Origin: a virus
Strand: one strand, 5' to 3'
DNA length: 18,996 nucleotides
Virus genome (UHGV): UHGV-0337515
In this document: one piece after another, positions 1,645-15,334 of the stretch
Layout: every line of letters begins with the position of its first letter
How positions within the stretch are numbered: position 1 is the stretch's first letter
Notes under the pieces: generated by a model
What the model saw: the letters and a program-made list of their open reading frames with translations, nothing else
What the model was told of the DNA's origin: nothing
Databases searched by the model: none
Position numbers and translations under genes: made by a program

Positions 1645-1832
1645 AAAAAATGCCCTCCAATAGAGAGCATTTTTACTGTATGTATAACCAGTGTCAATGT
1701 ATGAAATCCTGCGACCATACATCTCACTGAAGCCATAATGAAGTAGGCTATTCTTTTTGCTATGTGAGCATGTAACTTTTGCGGTTAACCTGTGGCTCAT
1801 TTTTATTTTAGGCGCAGATATAAAAGCAAAAG

Positions 1833-2039: not shown

Positions 2040-2609
2040 CTATTTAACATACTTGACTGTTAAACTTATAATTTTACCAATTATTTCAATGTCTTCTATC
2101 TTGCATTCGAAGGCTCTGTTTCCACCCTCGACGAAGATTCTTCCACCGGGTAAACGAGTAATGTCACGGATCGTTATTTCGCCATCAATACTTATTACCC
2201 ATTTACCATCACGTATATCATCAAATTCCTTATCACAAATAAATTCAGAATTATTATCTGTGATTACAAAAAGATTCTTGAATGCCGACGGTAGAAATTC
2301 TCTATCGAAAATATAAAAACCGTCTTCACACAAGGCCCCATCAGATAATACATATTTAGCAACTTCCATAGTATTTGTATTACCTGAAGTTTGCTTTGAA
2401 CCATGCCCGGTTGTGAGCCAATTAAGCGAGGTGCCTGTTTCAAGGGCGCACTGGATTACCCATTCTGCTGGGAATGAGTCACGCATGTAGCGTGTGGCGA
2501 GTGTACTTTTAGAGATTCCTAAATGATCGCACAACGCCTGTCGAGTCTTGAATCCATAAGCTTCTACCATGCGCTCTATAGCGCCTCGTCCGCCTTTCTC
2601 CAAATTCAT
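2040..2609 (-). CDS. cI: 186-type CI immunity repressor (about 189 aa)
   Basis: N-terminal HTH region (…VEAYGFKTRQALCDHLGISKSTLATRYMR…CALETGTSLNWLTTGHG) resembles phage 186 CI; its ~190 aa length fits 186 CI rather than the ~99-aa P2 C. ATG at 2609 has GGAG 6 nt upstream; the track start at 2615 is GTG. Confidence 0.85.
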   Translation of the reverse strand: MNLEKGGRGAIERMVEAYGFKTRQALCDHLGISKSTLATRYMRDSFPAEWVIQCALETGTSLNWLTTGHGSKQTSGNTNTMEVAKYVLSDGALCEDGFYIFDREFLPSAFKNLFVITDNNSEFICDKEFDDIRDGKWVISIDGEITIRDITRLPGGRIFVEGGNRAFECKIEDIEIIGKIISLTVKYVK

Positions 2610-2633
2610 GGTCACTCCAAGTGAACTTTTATC

Positions 2634-4789: not shown

Positions 4790-5643
4790 GCACCATCCTG
4801 AAATGGGCGGGAAATAAAACCGCCATTATGTCTGAACTGAAAAAACATCTTCCTGCTGGCCCGCGACTGGTTGAACCTTTCGCGGGTTCCTGTGCAGTGA
4901 TGATGGAGACGGAGTACCCCAGCTATCTTGTCGCGGATATTAATCCTGATTTAATCAACCTCTATAAAAAGGTTGCTGCTGATTGTGAATCGTTTATATC
5001 TCGCGCCAGAGTTTTATTTGAGATCGCAAACAGGGAGGTGGCTTATTACAACATAAGGCAGGAGTTTAATTACTCAACTGAAATTACTGATTTCATGAAA
5101 GCGGTATATTTCCTGTATCTCAATCGTCACGGTTACCGTGGTTTATGTCGCTATAACAAGAGCGGGCATTTCAACATTCCCTACGGTAATTATAAAAATC
5201 CGTATTTCCCTGAAAAAGAAATTCGCGCATTTGCAGAAAGGGCCCAGCGAGCAACGTTTATCTGCGCCAGCTTTGATGAAACGCTGGCGATGTTGAAGGC
5301 GGGGGATGTGGTGTATTGCGATCCGCCGTATGACGGTACGTTTTCCGGCTATCACACTGACGGCTTCACTGAAGATGACCAGTATCACCTGGCATCTGTT
5401 CTTGAACATCGGTCATCAGAAGGACATCCGGTCATTGTTTCTAACAGTGACACATCCCTGATCCGTTCGCTGTATCGCAATTTTACTCACCACTACATCA
5501 AGGCAAAACGCAGCATCGGTGTGGCAGCTGGCGAGGGTAAATCAGCAACAGAAATCATTGCTGTTTCCGGGCCGCGCTGCTGGGTGGGATTTGATTATTC
5601 GCGTGGCGTGGACAGTTCTGCCGTGTACGAGGTGCGTGTATGA
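4786..5643 (+). CDS. dam: DNA adenine methyltransferase (Dam-like, N6-adenine)
   Basis: Starts [11 protein letters not shown] (Dam N-terminal SAM-binding signature) and contains the DPPY catalytic motif ([10 protein letters not shown]). ATG at 4786 has GGAGGTG upstream and overlaps the preceding stop. The track extension from 4726 is unsupported. Confidence 0.88.
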
Positions 5644-8054
5644 GTCATGCCGATATGAGCGACTCTAGCGGCTTTAACGAGGCCGCTGCAGCATTTTCAT
5701 GGAACGGCCCGAAAAAGGCCATAAACCCTTATCTGGACCCGGCGGAAGTTGCGCCGGTTTCTGCGCTTTCAAACCTGATCACTCTGTATGCTGCCGATAA
5801 CGAGCAGGAACAGCTGCGCCGCGAGGAATTGAGTGAACAGGTCTGGGAGCGTTATTTCTTTAATGAATCCCGTGATCCTGTCCAGCGCGAAATGGAGCAG
5901 GATAAGCTCATTAGTCGGGCAAAGCTGGCGCATGAGCAGCAGCGTTTTAACCCGGACATGGTCATTCTGGCGGACGTCAGCGCCCAGCCCACCCACATCA
6001 GCAAGCCGCTGATGCAACGTATCGAATACTTCTGCAGCCTTGGCAGGCCAAAGGCTTATTCCCGCTATTTGCGTGAGACGATTAAGCCATGTCTGGAGCG
6101 ACTGGATTGTGTACGCGACAGTCAGCTATCCACTTCTTTTCGCTTTATGGCGAGCCATGAAGGGCTGGACGGCCTGCTGATCCTGCCTGAAATGAGTCAG
6201 GATCAGGTGAAACGCCTGTCCACCCTGGTAGCTGCGCATATGAGCATGTGCCTTGATGCAGCTTGTGGCGATTTGTATGCCACCGATGACGTTAAGCCAG
6301 AAGAAATCCGCAAGACATGGGAAAGGGTGGCAGCAGAAACCCTGCGACTGGATGTTATCCCACCTGCGTTTGAGCAACTCCGCCGGAAAAGAAACCGCCG
6401 TAAACCCGTGCCCTATGAACTCATTCCGGGTTCGCTGGCGCGTATGTTGTGCGCCGACTGGTGGTATCGGAAATTATGGAAGATGCGTTGCGAATGGCGG
6501 GAAGAGCAGTTGCGCGCTGTCTGCCTGGTCAGCAAAAAAGCATCTCCCTATGTCAGCTATGAAGCCGTGATGCATAAACGTGAGCAGCGCCGTAAGTCGC
6601 TGGAGTTTTTTCGTTCTCATGAACTGGTGAACGAAGACGGCGATACGCTGGAGATGGAAGACGTGGTAAACGCCAGCAGCAGCAACCCTGCGCATCGCCG
6701 CAATGAGATGATGGCCTGTGTTAAAGGTCTGGAGCTTATCGCGGAAATGCGCGGTGACTGCGCCGTTTTCTACACCATCACCTGTCCGTCACGTTTCCAT
6801 TCCACGCTAAATAACGGCAGACCAAACCCGACCTGGACAAACGCGACGGTAAGACAAAGCAGTGATTATCTGGTCGGCATGTTTGCTGCATTTCGTAAAG
6901 CGATGCACAAAGCCGGATTGCGCTGGTATGGCGTGCGGGTGGCTGAGCCGCATCATGACGGTACAGTTCACTGGCACCTGTTGTGTTTTATGCGCAAAAA
7001 AGATCGCCGAGCCATTACTGCTTTGTTGCGTAAGTTTGCCATTCGTGAAGACCGCGAGGAGCTGGGTAATAACACGGGACCACGCTTTAAGTCTGAGCTG
7101 ATAAACCCGCGCAAAGGTACGCCAACAAGCTACATCGCGAAATACATCAGTAAGAACATTGACGGGCGTGGTCTGGCTGGTGAGATCAGCAAGGAAACGG
7201 GTAAATCCCTGCGTGATAACGCTGAATACGTTAATGCCTGGGCGTCTCTGCATCGTGTTCAGCAATTTCGCTTCTTTGGTATTCCGGGGCGTCAGGCTTA
7301 CCGTGAACTGCGATTGCTGGCTGGTCAGGCGGCAAGGCAGCAGGGGGACAAAAAAGCAGGTGCGCCGGTACTGGATAACCCACGCCTTGATGCCATCCTG
7401 GCTGCTGCTGATGCTGGCTGTTTTGCCACCTACATCATGAAGCAGGGCGGCGTGCTGGTTCCCCGCAAATATCACCTTATCAGAACAGCTTATGAAATTA
7501 ACGAAGAGCCGACCGCCTATGGCGATCACGGTATTCGTATTTATGGCATCTGGTCACCCATTGCAGAGGGCAAGATCTGCACTCATGCCGTGAAGTGGAA
7601 AATGGTTCGTAAGGCCGTTGACGTTCAGGAGGCGGCAGCCGACCAGGGCGCTTGCGCCCCTTGGACTCGTGGCAATAACTGTCCCCTTGCTGAAAATTTG
7701 AACCAACAGGAGAAAGATAAATCAGCTGATGGGGACACCAGAACGGACATTATCCGCATGGATGACAAGGAGTTGCACGATTACCTGCACAGTCTGAGCA
7801 AAAAAGAGCGCCGGGAACTGGCAGCAAGGTTACGCCTGGTTAAGCCGAAATGGCGTAAAGACTACAAACAGCGAATTACAGATCATCAGCGACAGCAGCT
7901 CGTCTATGAACTGAAGTCCAGGGGATTTGATGGCAGCGAGAAAGAGGTCGATTTACTGCTTCGCGGCGGCAGTATTCCGTCAGGAGCAGGCCTGCGTATC
8001 TTCTATCGGAACCAGCGTTTGCAGGAAGATGATAAGTGGCGAAACCTGTATTAA
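5640..8054 (+). CDS. A: Replication initiator A (rolling-circle nicking protein, P2 gpA / 186 RepA family)
   Basis: 804-aa protein with an HUH-like motif ([10 protein letters not shown]) and paired tyrosines (SYIAKYISK) as in the P2 A active site. Start overlaps the dam stop (ATGA). Confidence 0.9.
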
Positions 8055-8146
8055 TTACGCGGGTTAACAATTCGTGCTCTTAATAATACCAGGCATATCA
8101 GGCTGATGAGCGTAAAAAAACGTTTTACATCAGTAAGATTATTATA

Positions 8147-8166
8147 TACTGTAAATATAAACAGTG
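8147..8166. promoter_or_regulatory. LexA (SOS) box TACTGTAAATATAAACAGTG overlapping a probable promoter of the tum-like operon
   Basis: CTGT-N8-ACAG palindrome; matches the LexA consensus TACTGTATATATATACAGTA at 16 of 20 positions. Lies about 40 bp upstream of the ORF at 8207, with TTTACA (8124-8129) and TATACT (8145-8150) promoter-like hexamers nearby. Confidence 0.65.
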
Positions 8167-8206
8167 GTTATGTATACAGTATTGCTTTGGTGTCATAGGA
8201 GGAAAG

Positions 8207-8395
8207 ATGCAGGACTATTTTTTGGAGTCTTTGAAGCTCCAGCGCATTGATTTTTTTCTTAAGCTTGTAGCGGCTAGTGAGTGTAGTGATGAAGAGAAGG
8301 GGCTGGCTCTGCAGTGGGTTTCTGAACTGACAGATGAACTCATGGCAAAAATCAGAAGCCACGAATACAACCGCTCAATGGATGTCATCAGCTGA
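8207..8395 (+). CDS. Small LexA-regulated protein (62 aa), possibly the N-terminal part of a Tum-like antirepressor
   Basis: Excellent SD AGGAGG 4 nt upstream of the ATG at 8207, directly downstream of the LexA box. Sits where 186 has tum. Confidence 0.6.
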   Translation: MQDYFLESLKLQRIDFFLKLVAASECSDEEKGLALQWVSELTDELMAKIRSHEYNRSMDVIS

Positions 8396-8405
8396 GGTGA
8401 CTTTT

Positions 8406-8639
8406 ATGCGCATTGAAATAATGATCGATAAAGAGCAGAAGATTAGCCAGTCTACCCTGGACGCCCTTGAATCCGAGCTTTACCGCAATCTGCGCCCCCT
8501 GTATCCCAAAACGGTAATCCGTATCCGTAAAGGTAGCTCTAACGGTGTGGAACTGACCGGACTGCAACTGGACGAAGAAAGAAAACAAGTGATGAAAATT
8601 TTGCAGAAGGTGTGGGAAGACGACAGCTGGCTGCATTGA
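8406..8639 (+). CDS. DinI-family protein (77 aa), like the C-terminal domain of 186 Tum
   Basis: MRIEIMIDKEQKISQSTLDALESELYRNLRPLYP…KQVMKILQKVWEDDSWLH parallels E. coli DinI (MRIEVTIAK…ILQETWE…DDW). ATG at 8406 with GAGGTGA upstream. Confidence 0.8.
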   Translation: MRIEIMIDKEQKISQSTLDALESELYRNLRPLYPKTVIRIRKGSSNGVELTGLQLDEERKQVMKILQKVWEDDSWLH

Positions 8640-8694
8640 TTTTGTCAATAGACGCTTGTTTTTACTAATCAAAAAGGGTTACATATGAGTGAGA

Positions 8695-8727
8695 GGCGAT
8701 GTCAATCAGATATCGCCTTGTTTTTTG
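8695..8727 (+). terminator. Weak candidate terminator hairpin between the DinI-like gene and the lipoprotein gene
   Basis: Inverted repeat ggcgat/atcgcc (8695-8700 / 8712-8717) followed by ttgttttttg. Confidence 0.3.
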
Positions 8728-8752
8728 TCAAGAAAAGAATAATAGGCTAAAA

Positions 8753-9430
8753 ATGAAAATTAATAATGTAGCGTTACCAATATCTCTTGCTGTAATCCTA
8801 ACTGGTTGCGTGCCACATGCTTCTAACCGAAATATCACTGCTATTGAAGTGGTGAAGCCAGCTATTGGGCAAAGTGCTACCGCCTACATGGGCGATCCCA
8901 TTATCACATCTGCTACTGGATTTAAAACGGACGTACTAGAACTTGGTGCGGCTAATGGTGCATTGTCTTCTATCGCTGCTGGTACATATTGCAGTGAGGG
9001 GAATGGAATTTACCGCAATTATCATAACCCTCAAGCTGTTGCGTTAAAAAATCTCTATGGGCAAATCGGTAACTATGTTGATTATGTTAGTTACGATGCT
9101 GCAAAAAATGAGATATCACCGCCAAATGGCACTTCTTATACTGCATCAGAAATTTCTATCAAACGTGTTCCTGATGGGCTGTGTCGAGTGAGTAATTCAT
9201 TGGTTAAGACTATCGAATATAATGGAAATGCAGGCGGTGTAATGAAGTTCACCTATCGTGAATTTGCAAACGATATGGCTCGTGCAGCATTTACAACAGA
9301 TTTTTCTGTAGATTCTAAGGGAAGTGATGTTATCGCTTACAAAGGTGCCAAGTTCAAAGTGAACAAGGCTGATAACTCGTCTATTTCTTATACAATTATT
9401 TCTGGCTTTGACAAGGCTGTCACGTTCTAG
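8753..9430 (+). CDS. Lipoprotein of unknown function (accessory gene)
   Basis: From ATG at 8753: MKINNVALPISLAVILTGC, a canonical lipoprotein signal peptide with lipobox LTGC. GC looks lower than the phage core genes. The track start at 8699 would put 18 residues in front of the signal peptide. Confidence 0.7.
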   Translation: MKINNVALPISLAVILTGCVPHASNRNITAIEVVKPAIGQSATAYMGDPIITSATGFKTDVLELGAANGALSSIAAGTYCSEGNGIYRNYHNPQAVALKNLYGQIGNYVDYVSYDAAKNEISPPNGTSYTASEISIKRVPDGLCRVSNSLVKTIEYNGNAGGVMKFTYREFANDMARAAFTTDFSVDSKGSDVIAYKGAKFKVNKADNSSISYTIISGFDKAVTF

Positions 9431-9724: not shown

Positions 9725-9753
9725 TTGACTTGAGGTGTAGTTGCAGTATTATA
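9725..9753 (+). promoter_or_regulatory. Candidate sigma70 promoter of the two-gene cassette (TTGACT-16/17 bp-TATTAT)
   Basis: -35 TTGACT at 9725-9730 and -10 TATTAT at 9747-9752, followed by AAGGA (9761-9765) and ATG at 9775. Confidence 0.55.
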
Positions 9754-9774
9754 AAAAGAAAAAGGATCTTTCTT

Positions 9775-10506
9775 ATGTACAGATTGTGGGTTTTATGGGG
9801 TTGTATCTTTGTTCTTCTACTTATTATCATGGGGTGCATTCCGTTTTCACCGTTTGAAAAATGGTGGTTTATAGTTAATTTCATGTCAAATGTAAACATA
9901 ATTCGTGCTTTTCTATCAGTATTAATACTATTTTTAGTTGCTTATATCTTGCTGGTCGGTGCATTTCATCAAAGATATTCATTGAGATTAGAGCAACTTA
10001 GTTTTGGTGGTATTAATATTTTACTAAATAAGTCTGATCTTCTTTTTAAAAAGAGCGTAAAAAATTATCTGGATACGAAGCGAACATTATTTAAATTTGA
10101 TCCGAATTATGACTCAATTGAAGAAGTTTTAAACTCATATTATGAGTGCTATAAATTCATTAGAGATGAAATGAAATTACTAGATGTGAAGAAAAAAAGA
10201 GATAAAAAACTGTATTTACTTTCAAATGAAATTTTGAAAACGTTAAACTCTTTTTTAACAAAGCATCAAAATAATTATCGGAGATGGCATAAATATGTTT
10301 CAGATAATGATAAAGTGACCACAAAGGATAGAGACCCTAACGGCGAATTTATATCATTGCCGTATCATTTAACCCCTATAAGTACTATACAAAAGCATTA
10401 TTATCATTTTAGTCAAGTATTGGAAGGTTTTAAAGAAGTAAACGATTTCTTCAATGATAAGGTAGTCAAAGAGTTTGATATAAATGTTGATAAATGGAGT
10501 GAATAA
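9775..10506 (+). CDS. Membrane protein with two N-terminal transmembrane helices and a ~170-aa helical C-terminal domain; candidate defence effector
   Basis: From ATG at 9775: hydrophobic helices LWVLWGCIFVLLLIIMGCIPF and IIRAFLSVLILFLVAYILLVGAF. Very AT-rich compared with flanking phage genes. Stop overlaps the next gene's start (TAATG). The track start at 9730 is TTG inside the promoter. Confidence 0.75.
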   Translation: MYRLWVLWGCIFVLLLIIMGCIPFSPFEKWWFIVNFMSNVNIIRAFLSVLILFLVAYILLVGAFHQRYSLRLEQLSFGGINILLNKSDLLFKKSVKNYLDTKRTLFKFDPNYDSIEEVLNSYYECYKFIRDEMKLLDVKKKRDKKLYLLSNEILKTLNSFLTKHQNNYRRWHKYVSDNDKVTTKDRDPNGEFISLPYHLTPISTIQKHYYHFSQVLEGFKEVNDFFNDKVVKEFDINVDKWSE

Positions 10507-11123
10507 TGCATAAGACGTTTCTTAGTTATCATCATGCTAACGAACAAGATCTCAAAGATGAGATTATTGATTTATTCGGAGGAGAATCGTTTATTGATAA
10601 GTCGGTAAGTGATGGTGACATTAGTACAACTAACACTGATGAAACAATAATGAGGACTATTCGTGAGGATTTTTTAAAAGACTCAACGGTTACTGTCGTT
10701 CTTATTGGAACGGAAACCAAAAATCGTCCATTTGTAAACTCTGAAATTCAAGCATCACTCTGGGGAGAAAACTATAATGGTCTAATTGGTGTTATCAGAG
10801 ATGAAATTTACGACAGTGTGTTTACTCCTGCAGTATGTGCAGATCCATCATGCGGATGTTCTATAAGTCTAAGAACGCCAGGTTGGGGATATGATTATTA
10901 TTTGCCTTATCTGGTTAGAAAGAATCATGTTTATGAAAAAACAGTTCCCCATTATAATGACTCTGACGTATATTGTGCATTGGTAAAATACTCTGTCTTT
11001 ATTAAAAATCCTGAGTATTATATTGATCAGGCATTTAACAAGCGTAAGTTGATGGAACCAGCTGCTAAACGAAATCCATCGGATGTTCCTGCAATTCGCA
11101 GCTCATCAATTTTTAACTGGTAA
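10506..11123 (+). CDS. TIR-like domain protein (ThsB/DUF1863-like), candidate defence sensor or NADase
   Basis: N-terminus MHKTFLSYHHANEQD fits the TIR first-strand signature (compare ThsB …VFFSFHYQD… as remembered); central TVTVVLIGTETKNRPFVNSEIQ fits the TIR core strand plus conserved Glu region. Translationally coupled to the upstream membrane protein. AT-rich. Confidence 0.7.
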   Translation: MHKTFLSYHHANEQDLKDEIIDLFGGESFIDKSVSDGDISTTNTDETIMRTIREDFLKDSTVTVVLIGTETKNRPFVNSEIQASLWGENYNGLIGVIRDEIYDSVFTPAVCADPSCGCSISLRTPGWGYDYYLPYLVRKNHVYEKTVPHYNDSDVYCALVKYSVFIKNPEYYIDQAFNKRKLMEPAAKRNPSDVPAIRSSSIFNW

Positions 11124-14953: not shown

Positions 14954-15334
14954 ATGAAGAAGAATACCCGCTTTGCTTTTAACGCTTACCTGCAGCAGCT
15001 GGCGCGTCTGAACGGTGTGGCAGTTGAAGAACTGTCCAGCAAGTTCACTGTGGAGCCGTCTGTGCAGCAGACGCTGGAAGACCAAATCCAGCAGTCCGCC
15101 GCTTTCCTGACGCTGATTAACGTCACGCCAGTGACTGAGCAGTCCGGTCAGCTGCTGGGGCTGGGTGTTGGCACCCGCCGCCGCTCAGTTATCGACAACC
15201 CGAAACGTGACCGGATTGAAAACTTTGAATCCGTTAACGAAGCCTATGTAGTTGAGGACTACCGCTGCGCCGCACTGGTGGAAAACATCCAGATTGGCGA
15301 CTTCAGCGCCGCCGCAGCAGAAGCCGGAGCGTAA
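14954..15334 (+). pseudogene. N: Major capsid protein gene N with a large in-frame internal deletion (126 aa instead of about 357)
   Basis: N-terminus (MKKNTRFAFNAYLQQLARLNG…FTVEPSVQQTL…) and C-terminus (…DNPKRDRIENFESVNEAYVVEDYRCAALVENIQIGDFSAAAAEAGA) both match P2 gpN ends, but the middle ~230 residues are absent. Junction near 15175-15185. Confidence 0.7.

Follow-up and report, generated by a model that had tools for sequence, protein, structure and literature searches.

The window, an 18,996-nucleotide stretch of the virus genome UHGV-0337515, holds a deleted P2-like prophage at the E. coli rcdA site. Between 8120 and 8640 lie a predicted LexA operator, promoter-like hexamers and two small open reading frames, here called ORF1 and ORF2, which are followed by a terminator-like hairpin and a predicted lipoprotein gene (Table 1). 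ORF1 has the genomic context of a tumA gene, namely a P2-like phage with a 186-type CI repressor and a position just downstream of replicase gene A, which ends at 8054. The region is collinear with Fels-2, KP12 and E. coli prophages.

Table 1. Features of the tumA-tumB region and of related sites elsewhere in the window.
Feature	Position	Strand	Remark
Candidate LexA-like box (plus strand TACTGTATGTATAACCAGTG)	1674-1693	-	in the spacer of a promoter-like site, ~30 nt upstream of int ATG 1644
186-type CI repressor, presumed TumA target	2040-2612	-	
-35-like hexamer TTTACA of a p95-type SOS promoter	8124-8129	+	read from the sequence
LexA operator (predicted SOS box) TACTGTAAATATAAACAGTG	8147-8166	.	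left half doubles as -10-like TACTGT, 8147-8152
Shine-Dalgarno AGGAGG for ORF1	8197-8202	+	4 nt ahead of ATG at 8207
ORF1, tumA-type gene, predicted CI antirepressor, 62 aa	8207-8395	+	
Shine-Dalgarno GAGGTG for ORF2	8394-8399	+	overlaps ORF1 stop codon, 8393-8395
ORF2, tumB-type gene, DinI family, 77 aa	8406-8639	+	
Intrinsic terminator-like hairpin and T-run after tumB	8693-8729	+	positional counterpart of 186 t95a
Predicted lipoprotein gene, 225 aa, Fels-2 STM2726 type	8753-9430	+	possible read-through operon member

The predicted operator agrees with the consensus TACTGT(AT)4ACAGTA at 17 of 20 positions and retains intact CTGT and ACAG halves. It has the CTGT-N8-ACAG form, AT-rich spacer and promoter location of an SOS box. 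The spacer between TTTACA and TACTGT is 17 nt; the annotated p95 promoter of phage 186 consists of TTCACA, 18 nt and TACTGT, and its -10 also falls inside the LexA box, so that the overlap of operator and hexamers noted in a preliminary description of this DNA reproduces an annotated layout. TACTGT resembles TATAAT poorly, and a generic promoter scan of the window called no promoter at 8124-8152. CTGT-N8-ACAG occurs once in the window and at least once in 41 of 200 shuffled sequences, so the motif by itself is not significant. What makes the near-consensus box credible is its position and conservation: of 79 related IMG/VR loci, 77 have it 58-59 nt upstream of ORF1, Fels-2 (where the box is identical), PSP3 and 186 have it at the corresponding position, and in the 186 record that site is annotated as LexA-binding. 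As a possible second LexA box, ATACAGTA at 8174-8181 was rejected: it is a half-site with GTGG on the left, where CTGT is required.

Downstream of the box, the 62-aa frame and its Shine-Dalgarno sequence were confirmed. ORF1 matches phrog_698 (E = 5.9e-38), a family that the N-terminus of 186 Tum also matches (E = 2.4e-5); both match phrog_8554 as well, and cross-matches via phrog_698, phrog_8554 and phrog_1993 tie ORF1 to the Tum N-terminus. Pairwise BLASTP found no similarity of ORF1 to 186 Tum or to PSP3 TumA, and profile methods were therefore needed to detect its homology. An ORF1 family profile of 28 sequences aligned to 186 Tum by hhalign with a probability of 94.9% (E = 4.5e-8), residues 3-44 on residues 3-44, placing ORF1 as a homolog of the N-terminal part of Tum. 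The family aligned weakly to PSP3 TumA (E = 0.0039, probability 8.6%). The AlphaFold2 model of ORF1 is a two-helix hairpin (pLDDT 88), for which a Foldseek search of the PDB returned generic helical hairpins only, none at E <= 0.001. By sequence, ORF1 matched nothing in the PDB and no NCBIfam or PADLOC family, and nothing in Pfam reached the threshold. It is identical to Fels-2 STM2728 at 60 of 62 residues, and a crude dN/dS of 0.07 points to strong purifying selection. Nearly all of the 67 representative clusters related to ORF1 are small stand-alone proteins, and a fused DinI domain is absent from every one of them. In RefSeq the antirepressor gene still goes under 'hypothetical protein', so the practical value of these results is better annotation, with WP_001154431-type proteins as candidates for TumA-type antirepressors.

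ORF2 is the DinI-family frame that had been reported 10 nt after ORF1 and in a different frame, although its start is at 8406 and not at 8407. It matches the whole of the Pfam DinI profile (PF06183, positions 1-63 of 63; E = 4.6e-23), with 81.8 bits against a gathering cut-off of 24.2. Against the NCBIfam DinI equivalog NF007893 it scores 44.1 bits, where the curated cut-off is 111; ORF2 is a phage DinI-like paralogue, not the host chromosomal DinI. The product is 77% identical to PSP3 TumB and 43% identical to residues 71-145 of 186 Tum, an alignment that starts at the internal GTG start of 186 tum. The 186 record supports the earlier statement that tum yields a single 146-aa product with a DinI-like C-terminal part, and the description of the present locus as a Tum-type module with predicted LexA control and a DinI-like 3' ORF is likewise upheld. 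The structure of E. coli DinI, 1GHH, also matches ORF2 (E = 1.4e-6), and from this homology we infer that the ORF2 product binds and modulates RecA filaments. Selection on ORF2 is strongly purifying (crude dN/dS 0.01). The overlap of its Shine-Dalgarno sequence with the ORF1 stop codon suggests coupled or re-initiated translation. A hairpin at the junction (8384-8401) was tried as a coupling device and rejected, as its stability does not exceed that of shuffled sequence (z = -0.85); nothing comparable exists in PSP3 or 186.

Beyond tumB, the terminator-like hairpin has a predicted stability of -16.7 kcal/mol (z = -3.8), which none of 200 shuffled sequences equalled; its counterpart t95a is annotated as a partial terminator. 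The lipoprotein gene can also be read as a longer ORF (243 aa, 8699-9430), but its phrog_1353 match begins at residue 19 of that frame, and the true start is most likely 8753 rather than 8699. PGAP annotates the same 678-nt gene in E. coli LT2-3, and the N-terminus MKINNVALPISLAVILTGC has a lipobox. The SOS operon of 186 is tum-orf97, and the 243-aa ORF equals orf97 in length; homology to orf97 was rejected, the product of 8753-9427 giving a BLASTP E of 3.8 against Orf97. A ThsB-TIR cargo gene also lies downstream.

The same arrangement of 62 aa, 10 nt and 77 aa is found in 79 of 80 IMG/VR loci, and the module occurs in 1125 of 5426 complete E. coli genomes (about 21%). The two-ORF layout is shared by the functional phages Fels-2, PSP3, RE2010 and Klebsiella 4LV2017, and an apparently intact prophage of E. 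coli LT2-3 carries an identical copy of the module. The GenBank record of PSP3 names the two genes tumA ('similar to 5' end 186 tum; UV induction of prophage') and tumB. A passage in Lemire et al. (2011; PMC3121763), citing Bunny et al. (2002), describes tum of Fels-2 and PSP3 as split by a stop codon, and the same article mentions antirepressor activity of the upstream PSP3 gene on the basis of a personal communication. By these comparisons the two-gene form is the normal state and not a broken 186 tum. The split tum operon is already known, from the PSP3 annotation and, for Fels-2, from Lemire et al. (2011; PMC3121763). It carries little weight as a discovery, since it is annotated, in the literature and present in roughly one-fifth of complete E. 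coli genomes.

Very probably, then, 8120-8640 is the SOS operon of a Fels-2/PSP3-type P2-like phage (Peduoviridae) in its normal two-gene form, working as follows. In an undamaged cell host LexA would sit on its box and, because the box overlaps the -10 of the p95-like promoter, would keep the operon off. DNA damage would activate RecA, LexA would cleave itself and the promoter would fire. The TumA-type two-helix protein would then bind the non-cleavable 186-type CI and block its binding to its operators, derepressing the early lytic promoter, while the TumB-type protein, translated from its own Shine-Dalgarno sequence, would probably modulate the RecA filament and with it the strength or duration of the SOS signal. 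Read-through of the terminator could extend expression to the lipoprotein gene. The binding of LexA at this site, the TumA-CI interaction and the DinI-like action on RecA are carried over from related systems. Shearwin et al. (1998), as cited in PMC3121763, are credited with the finding that 186 Tum binds CI and prevents operator binding, and the 186 record describes the short DinI-like tum products as modulators of SOS induction. Fels-2 STM2727, in the operon STM2726-2727-2728, was induced 5.5-, 11.1- and 14.8-fold by the mutagen MX and stands at the top of the LexA regulon list (PMC2225428, Table 4). The presumed target in the window has the Pfam domains Phage_CI_repr (E = 2.8e-33) and Phage_CI_C (E = 2.7e-27), with Peptidase_S24 below the cut-off, and is 31% identical to 186 CI.

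We weighed this reading against three others that concern the operon itself. The preliminary description had offered either a frameshifted tum or a natural two-gene variant, and had suggested looking for a one-base indel relative to 186 tum. Decay elsewhere in the prophage, with its capsid and tail deletions, and a summed length of 139 aa, near the 146 aa of 186 Tum, would suit a 186-like tum recently broken by a frameshift or nonsense mutation and left as a pseudogene. The variant stands and the frameshift falls, since the functional phages Fels-2, PSP3, RE2010 and 4LV2017 and the apparently intact LT2-3 prophage have the same two ORFs, the very finding that the preliminary description had named as its refutation, and 79 of the 80 IMG/VR loci have them too. 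Purifying selection acts on both ORFs, each in its own frame, ORF2 starts with an ATG behind a Shine-Dalgarno sequence of its own, and none of the 67 ORF1-related clusters is fused. Nor did the nucleotide alignment with 186 contain a one-base indel: the ORF1 part is unalignable and 186 has ~40 nt of extra linker. In that alignment with 186 and PSP3 only the DinI part aligns, and MAFFT misplaced the LexA boxes. We regard the lesion as refuted by the comparative data, and its probability as negligible. Scarcely more probable is that the LexA-like palindrome is a chance or vestigial one and the operon outside SOS control in this element. One such motif in 19 kb is statistically ordinary and the promoter went uncalled, but the constant distance to ORF1, the retention of the box in the 186 and PSP3 lineages although the tumA-type DNA there cannot be aligned, and the mutagen induction of the Fels-2 operon behind an identical box all argue against it.

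It is also improbable, if less so, that induction is really due to the DinI-like ORF2, acting for instance on RecA or on CI, with ORF1 an accessory or unrelated small protein. ORF2 is the more conserved of the two and the only one with clear pairwise similarity to 186 Tum, and ORF1 is found beside very different CI proteins; against this, ORF1 corresponds by homology to the half of Tum that is not DinI-like, and the DinI-only product of 186 is recorded as a modulator, not an antirepressor. A further reading leaves the regulation unchanged and alters its consequence. The prophage has lost most of the capsid gene through an in-frame 678-bp deletion, and all tail and lysis-accessory genes through a deletion of roughly 13 kb, which bears out the earlier claim that it is unable to complete a lytic cycle; int, CI, replicase A, tumA and tumB are intact. 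With those structural and lysis genes missing, induction here can at most yield derepression, excision, replication and possibly killing or action in trans, and no virions. That DNA damage could drive replication or cargo expression instead of phage production, as had been suggested, is a reasonable conjecture. The operon might accordingly be thought to serve the induction of co-resident P2-like prophages in trans, or an abortive derepression comprising excision, replication, holin-mediated killing and cargo expression, which we consider possible but somewhat unlikely. The survival of the five regulatory and replicative genes fits such a role, as do the near-invariance of TumA over three CI immunity types and the antirepressor crosstalk in trans documented for Gifsy and Fels-1 prophages (PMC3121763). 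The deletions, however, seem to be recent or unique: they recur in no complete E. coli genome, and the GTDB representative genomes, searched for exact matches to the capsid-deletion junction, contained none. An apparently intact copy, in E. coli LT2-3, is 100% identical over the module and the stretches compared. With the deletions unshared and an identical copy intact, there has probably been no selection for a new role.

Returning to the two-gene SOS operon, two observations touch on its reach. Prophages whose CI proteins share only 42-52% identity overall have TumA proteins that are 97-100% identical, a constancy beside diverged repressors that is unexpected for a specific repressor/antirepressor pair. 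The N-terminal DNA-binding domains of these repressors are 63-73% identical; because they are more alike than the whole proteins, TumA may dock on the conserved HTH domain. One TumA for several CI immunity types would make cross-induction between prophages possible, and if TumA is indeed broad, a dead prophage could act in trans as an SOS-triggered inducer of co-resident Fels-2-like prophages. The other observation is the site ahead of int, a possible LexA operator at the int promoter. Its CTGG and ACAGT halves and the -35 TTGA are invariant in five diverged prophages in which spacer and flanks vary, and an int homologue begins ~30 nt downstream of the site in 93 of 120 IMG/VR pattern matches. 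Transcripts initiated at the int promoter may begin within a terminator hairpin (1668-1652) that otherwise prevents int from being expressed on the cI transcript; if the operator is real, integrase synthesis would be damage-inducible. Taken jointly, a broad-specificity TumA and int as a second SOS-tied point of the element form a reading that we put forward tentatively and consider unlikely.

Among the closest known systems is Fels-2 of Salmonella LT2, with 97.7% DNA identity over 8060-8700 and the same LexA box, 62-aa and 77-aa ORFs. Its operon, STM2728 / STM2727 (STM2726.1) / STM2726, includes a third gene of the type found in the window, and the annotation of its DinI family protein notes similarity to PsP3 TumB. 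The Fels-2 phage is complete, unlike the deleted prophage that carries the copy in the window, and the two CI proteins are only 42% identical. PSP3 likewise has two separate genes after the replicase gene with a LexA box ahead, and a tumB of 77 aa; it differs in a tumA-tumB gap of 3 nt instead of 10 nt and in its TumA (60 aa), which belongs to phrog_1993, ORF1 belonging to phrog_698. Phage 186 shares the LexA box over the promoter -10, the place of tum after gene A and the terminator after tum. There, a linker of about 25 residues joins the two parts into a single 146-aa protein, whose N-terminal 44 residues are homologous to ORF1. Nested starts in 186 tum mean that a DinI-like 77-aa product is also made from the internal GTG, where ORF2 aligns. 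Past tum, the 186 SOS operon has in common with the window only the position of a downstream gene and the intervening terminator. The dinI-gfoA/gftA operons of Gifsy-1, -2 and -3 are analogous, in that they are LexA-repressed and pair a DinI homologue with a small antirepressor against a non-cleavable repressor (PMC3121763), but they place dinI first, belong to lambdoid phages and use antirepressors and repressors of unrelated families (PMC3121763). Chromosomal DinI of E. coli (1GHH) and ORF2 belong to the same Pfam family, align over their full length and share the C-terminal W-E-acidic helix.

The window is a P2-like (Peduoviridae) prophage adjoining the E. coli gene rcdA, and over its first 700 bases it matches many E. 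coli chromosomes at 100% identity. Its predicted SOS module consists of a LexA box and two genes, tumA-type ORF1 (product TumA, a predicted CI antirepressor) and tumB-type ORF2 (product TumB). The preliminary description had placed a 77-aa DinI-family ORF in another frame 10 nt after ORF1; this stands, save that its start had been set one base away from 8406.

Features of the prophage and its SOS module
Feature	Position	Strand	Details
int	613-1644	minus	first gene in order, followed by a small ORF
cI	2040-2612	minus	after the small ORF
apl/cox-like gene, cII, fil-like gene, several small genes, DNA methylase	between cI and replicase A		
replicase A	5640-8054		directly before the tum region
-35-like TTTACA	8124-8129		17 nt, then TACTGT (8147-8152); layout as 186 p95
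LexA-box palindrome	8147-8166		TACTGTAAATATAAACAGTG, read in sequence
Shine-Dalgarno AGGAGG	8197-8202		upstream of ORF1
ORF1	8207-8395	plus	62 aa, then 10-nt gap
Shine-Dalgarno GAGGTG of ORF2	8394-8399		overlaps ORF1 stop codon
ORF2	8406-8639	plus	77 aa, frame differs from ORF1
Terminator-like hairpin, strong	8693-8729		z = -3.8; at position of 186 t95a
Predicted lipoprotein gene	8753-9430		after hairpin; lipobox LTGC; N-terminus MKINNVALPISLAVILTGC
ThsB-like TIR protein	10506-11123		Pfam PF08937, E = 1e-14; PADLOC ThsB, E = 6.5e-12
Cargo genes, then portal, terminase, head genes	after the tum region		gene order

The predicted product of ORF2 is clearly a DinI-family protein, as had been proposed: it scores 81.8 bits against Pfam DinI (cut-off 24.2) and matches the E. 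coli DinI structure 1GHH (E = 1.4e-6). It is 43% identical to residues 71-145 of 186 Tum, and the alignment starts at an internal GTG from which the 186 record annotates a 77-aa 'truncated Tum - modulates SOS induction', so 186, too, produces its DinI part separately. Pairwise BLASTP found no similarity between ORF1 and either 186 Tum or PSP3 TumA; it is by profile methods that ORF1 is detectably related to the 186 Tum N-terminus. ORF1 matched phrog_698 (E = 5.9e-38), phrog_8554 (1.1e-8) and phrog_1993 (0.002), while the Tum N-terminus matched phrog_1993 (1e-22), phrog_8554 (1.4e-11) and phrog_698 (2.4e-5, residues 7-44 on profile positions 7-44), and PSP3 TumA matched phrog_1993 (2.7e-32). 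A profile of 28 ORF1-family sequences likewise reached residues 3-44 of 186 Tum (probability 94.9%, E = 4.5e-8) and, weakly, PSP3 TumA (E = 0.0039). The AlphaFold2 model of ORF1 is a two-helix hairpin (pLDDT 88) for which no informative structural neighbour was found. PGAP calls the tumA-type gene of RefSeq relatives (WP_001154431.1; 20088-20276 in the E. coli LT2-3 record, L211, and 28207-28395 in a second record, L087) a 'hypothetical protein', and in some sources its name is 'levan regulatory protein'. This TumA-type antirepressor candidate, not annotated as such, is present in about 21% of complete E. coli genomes.

Two readings of the paired ORFs had been offered, a frameshifted tum and a natural two-gene variant, and comparative sequence evidence indicates that the split is the natural state rather than a broken gene. 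Fels-2 is annotated with both ORFs (STM2728 and a DinI family protein 'similar to PsP3 TumB'), as is PSP3, whose tumA is 'similar to 5' end 186 tum; UV induction of prophage' and whose tumB is 'similar to dinI and 3' end of 186 tum'. At 93-98% identity the layout recurs in many further relatives, including phages RE2010 (Salmonella), 4LV2017 and KP12 (both Klebsiella). Among 80 IMG/VR loci fetched by the DinI part, 79 have exactly 62 aa, 10 nt and 77 aa in different frames. Distinct substitutions counted at these loci were, for ORF1, 21 synonymous and 6 non-synonymous and, for ORF2, 39 and 1; the resulting crude dN/dS values (0.07 and 0.01) argue that each frame is translated and under constraint. 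When all 1.84 billion representative proteins were scanned with HMMER, ORF1 relatives fell into 67 clusters, nearly all stand-alone proteins of 50-100 aa and none with a DinI domain; the best 120 matches in a 5.8-billion-protein collection are about 62 aa, some lengthened upstream by gene callers. The module is carried by 1125 of 5426 complete E. coli genomes (~21%). The one-base indel relative to 186 tum that a frameshift would predict was not visible in a nucleotide alignment: the DinI part aligns among the window, Fels-2, PSP3 and 186, the ORF1 part has no match to 186 or PSP3, and 186 carries an extra linker of about 40 nt.

The LexA box reported upstream of ORF1 is present. By sequence alone it is not above chance (CTGT-N8-ACAG occurs once in the 19-kb window, which 41 of 200 shuffles matched), and its credibility comes from position and conservation. 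It lies 58-59 nt upstream of ORF1 in 77 of 79 related viral contigs, and it also occurs in PSP3 and 186, though their upstream gene shows no DNA-level alignment to ORF1. As annotated, 186 p95 consists of TTCACA, 18 nt and TACTGT, and its -10 coincides with the left half of the LexA site, 18 nt ahead of tum. A generic scan called no promoter at the corresponding hexamers here, because TACTGT is a weak -10. In Salmonella exposed to the mutagen MX, STM2727 of the Fels-2 operon STM2726-2727-2728 tops the LexA-regulon table, with 5.5-, 11.1- and 14.8-fold induction (PMC2225428); this region of Fels-2 and the window share 97.7% identity, and from locus-tag order we take STM2727 to be the DinI-like gene. 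A half-site, ATACAGTA (8174-8181), lies 8 nt past the main box, and in a MAFFT alignment it fell opposite the LexA boxes of 186 and PSP3; the partner to its left, GTGG, departs from the required CTGT, so the half-site is probably not a second operator.

Anatomy, homology to both Tum halves, conservation and purifying selection are all seen in the module, and DNA-damage induction is known for the Fels-2 operon (PMC2225428). By analogy with phage 186 (Shearwin et al., 1998, as cited by Lemire et al.), and given the statement of Lemire et al. that in PSP3 the antirepressor activity belongs to the upstream gene, LexA cleavage would open the SOS promoter, TumA would bind CI and block its operator binding, and TumB would tune RecA. 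The window CI is of the 186 type (Phage_CI_repr and Phage_CI_C), with no S24 peptidase above threshold. TumA is 97-100% and TumB 99% identical among the window, two E. coli prophages, KP12 and Fels-2, whereas CI identity across the same prophages is 100, 90, 52 and 42%, so that one antirepressor sequence is paired with at least three immunity types. CI N-terminal DNA-binding domains are 63-73% identical and C-terminal domains 26-41%, which suggests that TumA acts on the N-terminal domain or that its specificity is broad.

The prophage was described as unable to complete a lytic cycle, and two deletions, defined relative to KP12 and E. coli relatives, bear this out. The major capsid gene (14954-15334) has an in-frame internal 678-bp deletion (junction 15171/15172) leaving 126 of the normal 352 aa, and a second deletion of ~13 kb joins the interior of the endolysin gene (about 17110) directly to gpU, gpD and ogr; the rest of the lysis genes are lost with it, together with those for baseplate, fibre, sheath, tube and tape measure. 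Intact-looking genes include int, cI, cII, A, tumA and tumB, as well as portal, terminase, scaffold, small terminase, head-completion, gpX and holin genes. The E. coli LT2-3 prophage, which is integrated at this site too and carries the same cargo genes, is apparently intact and identical over the module and the other stretches compared. Neither deletion was found among complete E. coli genomes or GTDB representatives, which makes the defective state look recent or private. The window holds no sign that the SOS module was retained for a new purpose.

Cargo occupies a variable slot (9730-11123) between operon and portal gene. The ThsB-like ORF is preceded by that of an unannotated protein, about 243-258 aa long, which matched no family, and the pair may be a two-gene defence system resembling Thoeris in which one partner has gone unrecognised. 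In relatives the slot contains other cargo: SIR2 with ParA, a retron reverse transcriptase or a KAP NTPase.

A second good LexA-like candidate, TACTGTATGTATAACCAGTG (1674-1693), lies about 30 nt upstream of the int ATG (1644), in the spacer of a minus-strand promoter-like site (TTGACA at 1697-1692, 16-17 nt, TAAAAA/AAAAAT). Five diverged prophages share its CTGG and ACAGT halves and the -35 without change but differ in spacer and flanks. An int homologue starts ~30 nt downstream in 93 of 120 IMG/VR matches, a figure biased by conditioning the search on the motif. Between box and ATG is a covarying terminator-like hairpin (1668-1652 plus T-run) that includes the int Shine-Dalgarno and ends just upstream of the ATG. 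Such a box is not found in Fels-2 or 186, where int abuts cI. The candidate could make int SOS-inducible.

By every sequence-level membership test applied, the module groups with the 186-type SOS operon save in two respects: ORF2 is not the chromosomal DinI equivalog, and the window operon lacks an orf97 homologue. The lipoprotein gene, of the Fels-2 STM2726/phrog_1353 type, was rejected as one (BLASTP E = 3.8); a mechanical ORF list makes it 243 aa long, which happens to equal the length of 186 orf97. The two-gene arrangement is already known, since it stands in GenBank annotation and the literature, and these comparisons identify the module as the 186 SOS operon in its Fels-2/PSP3 form.
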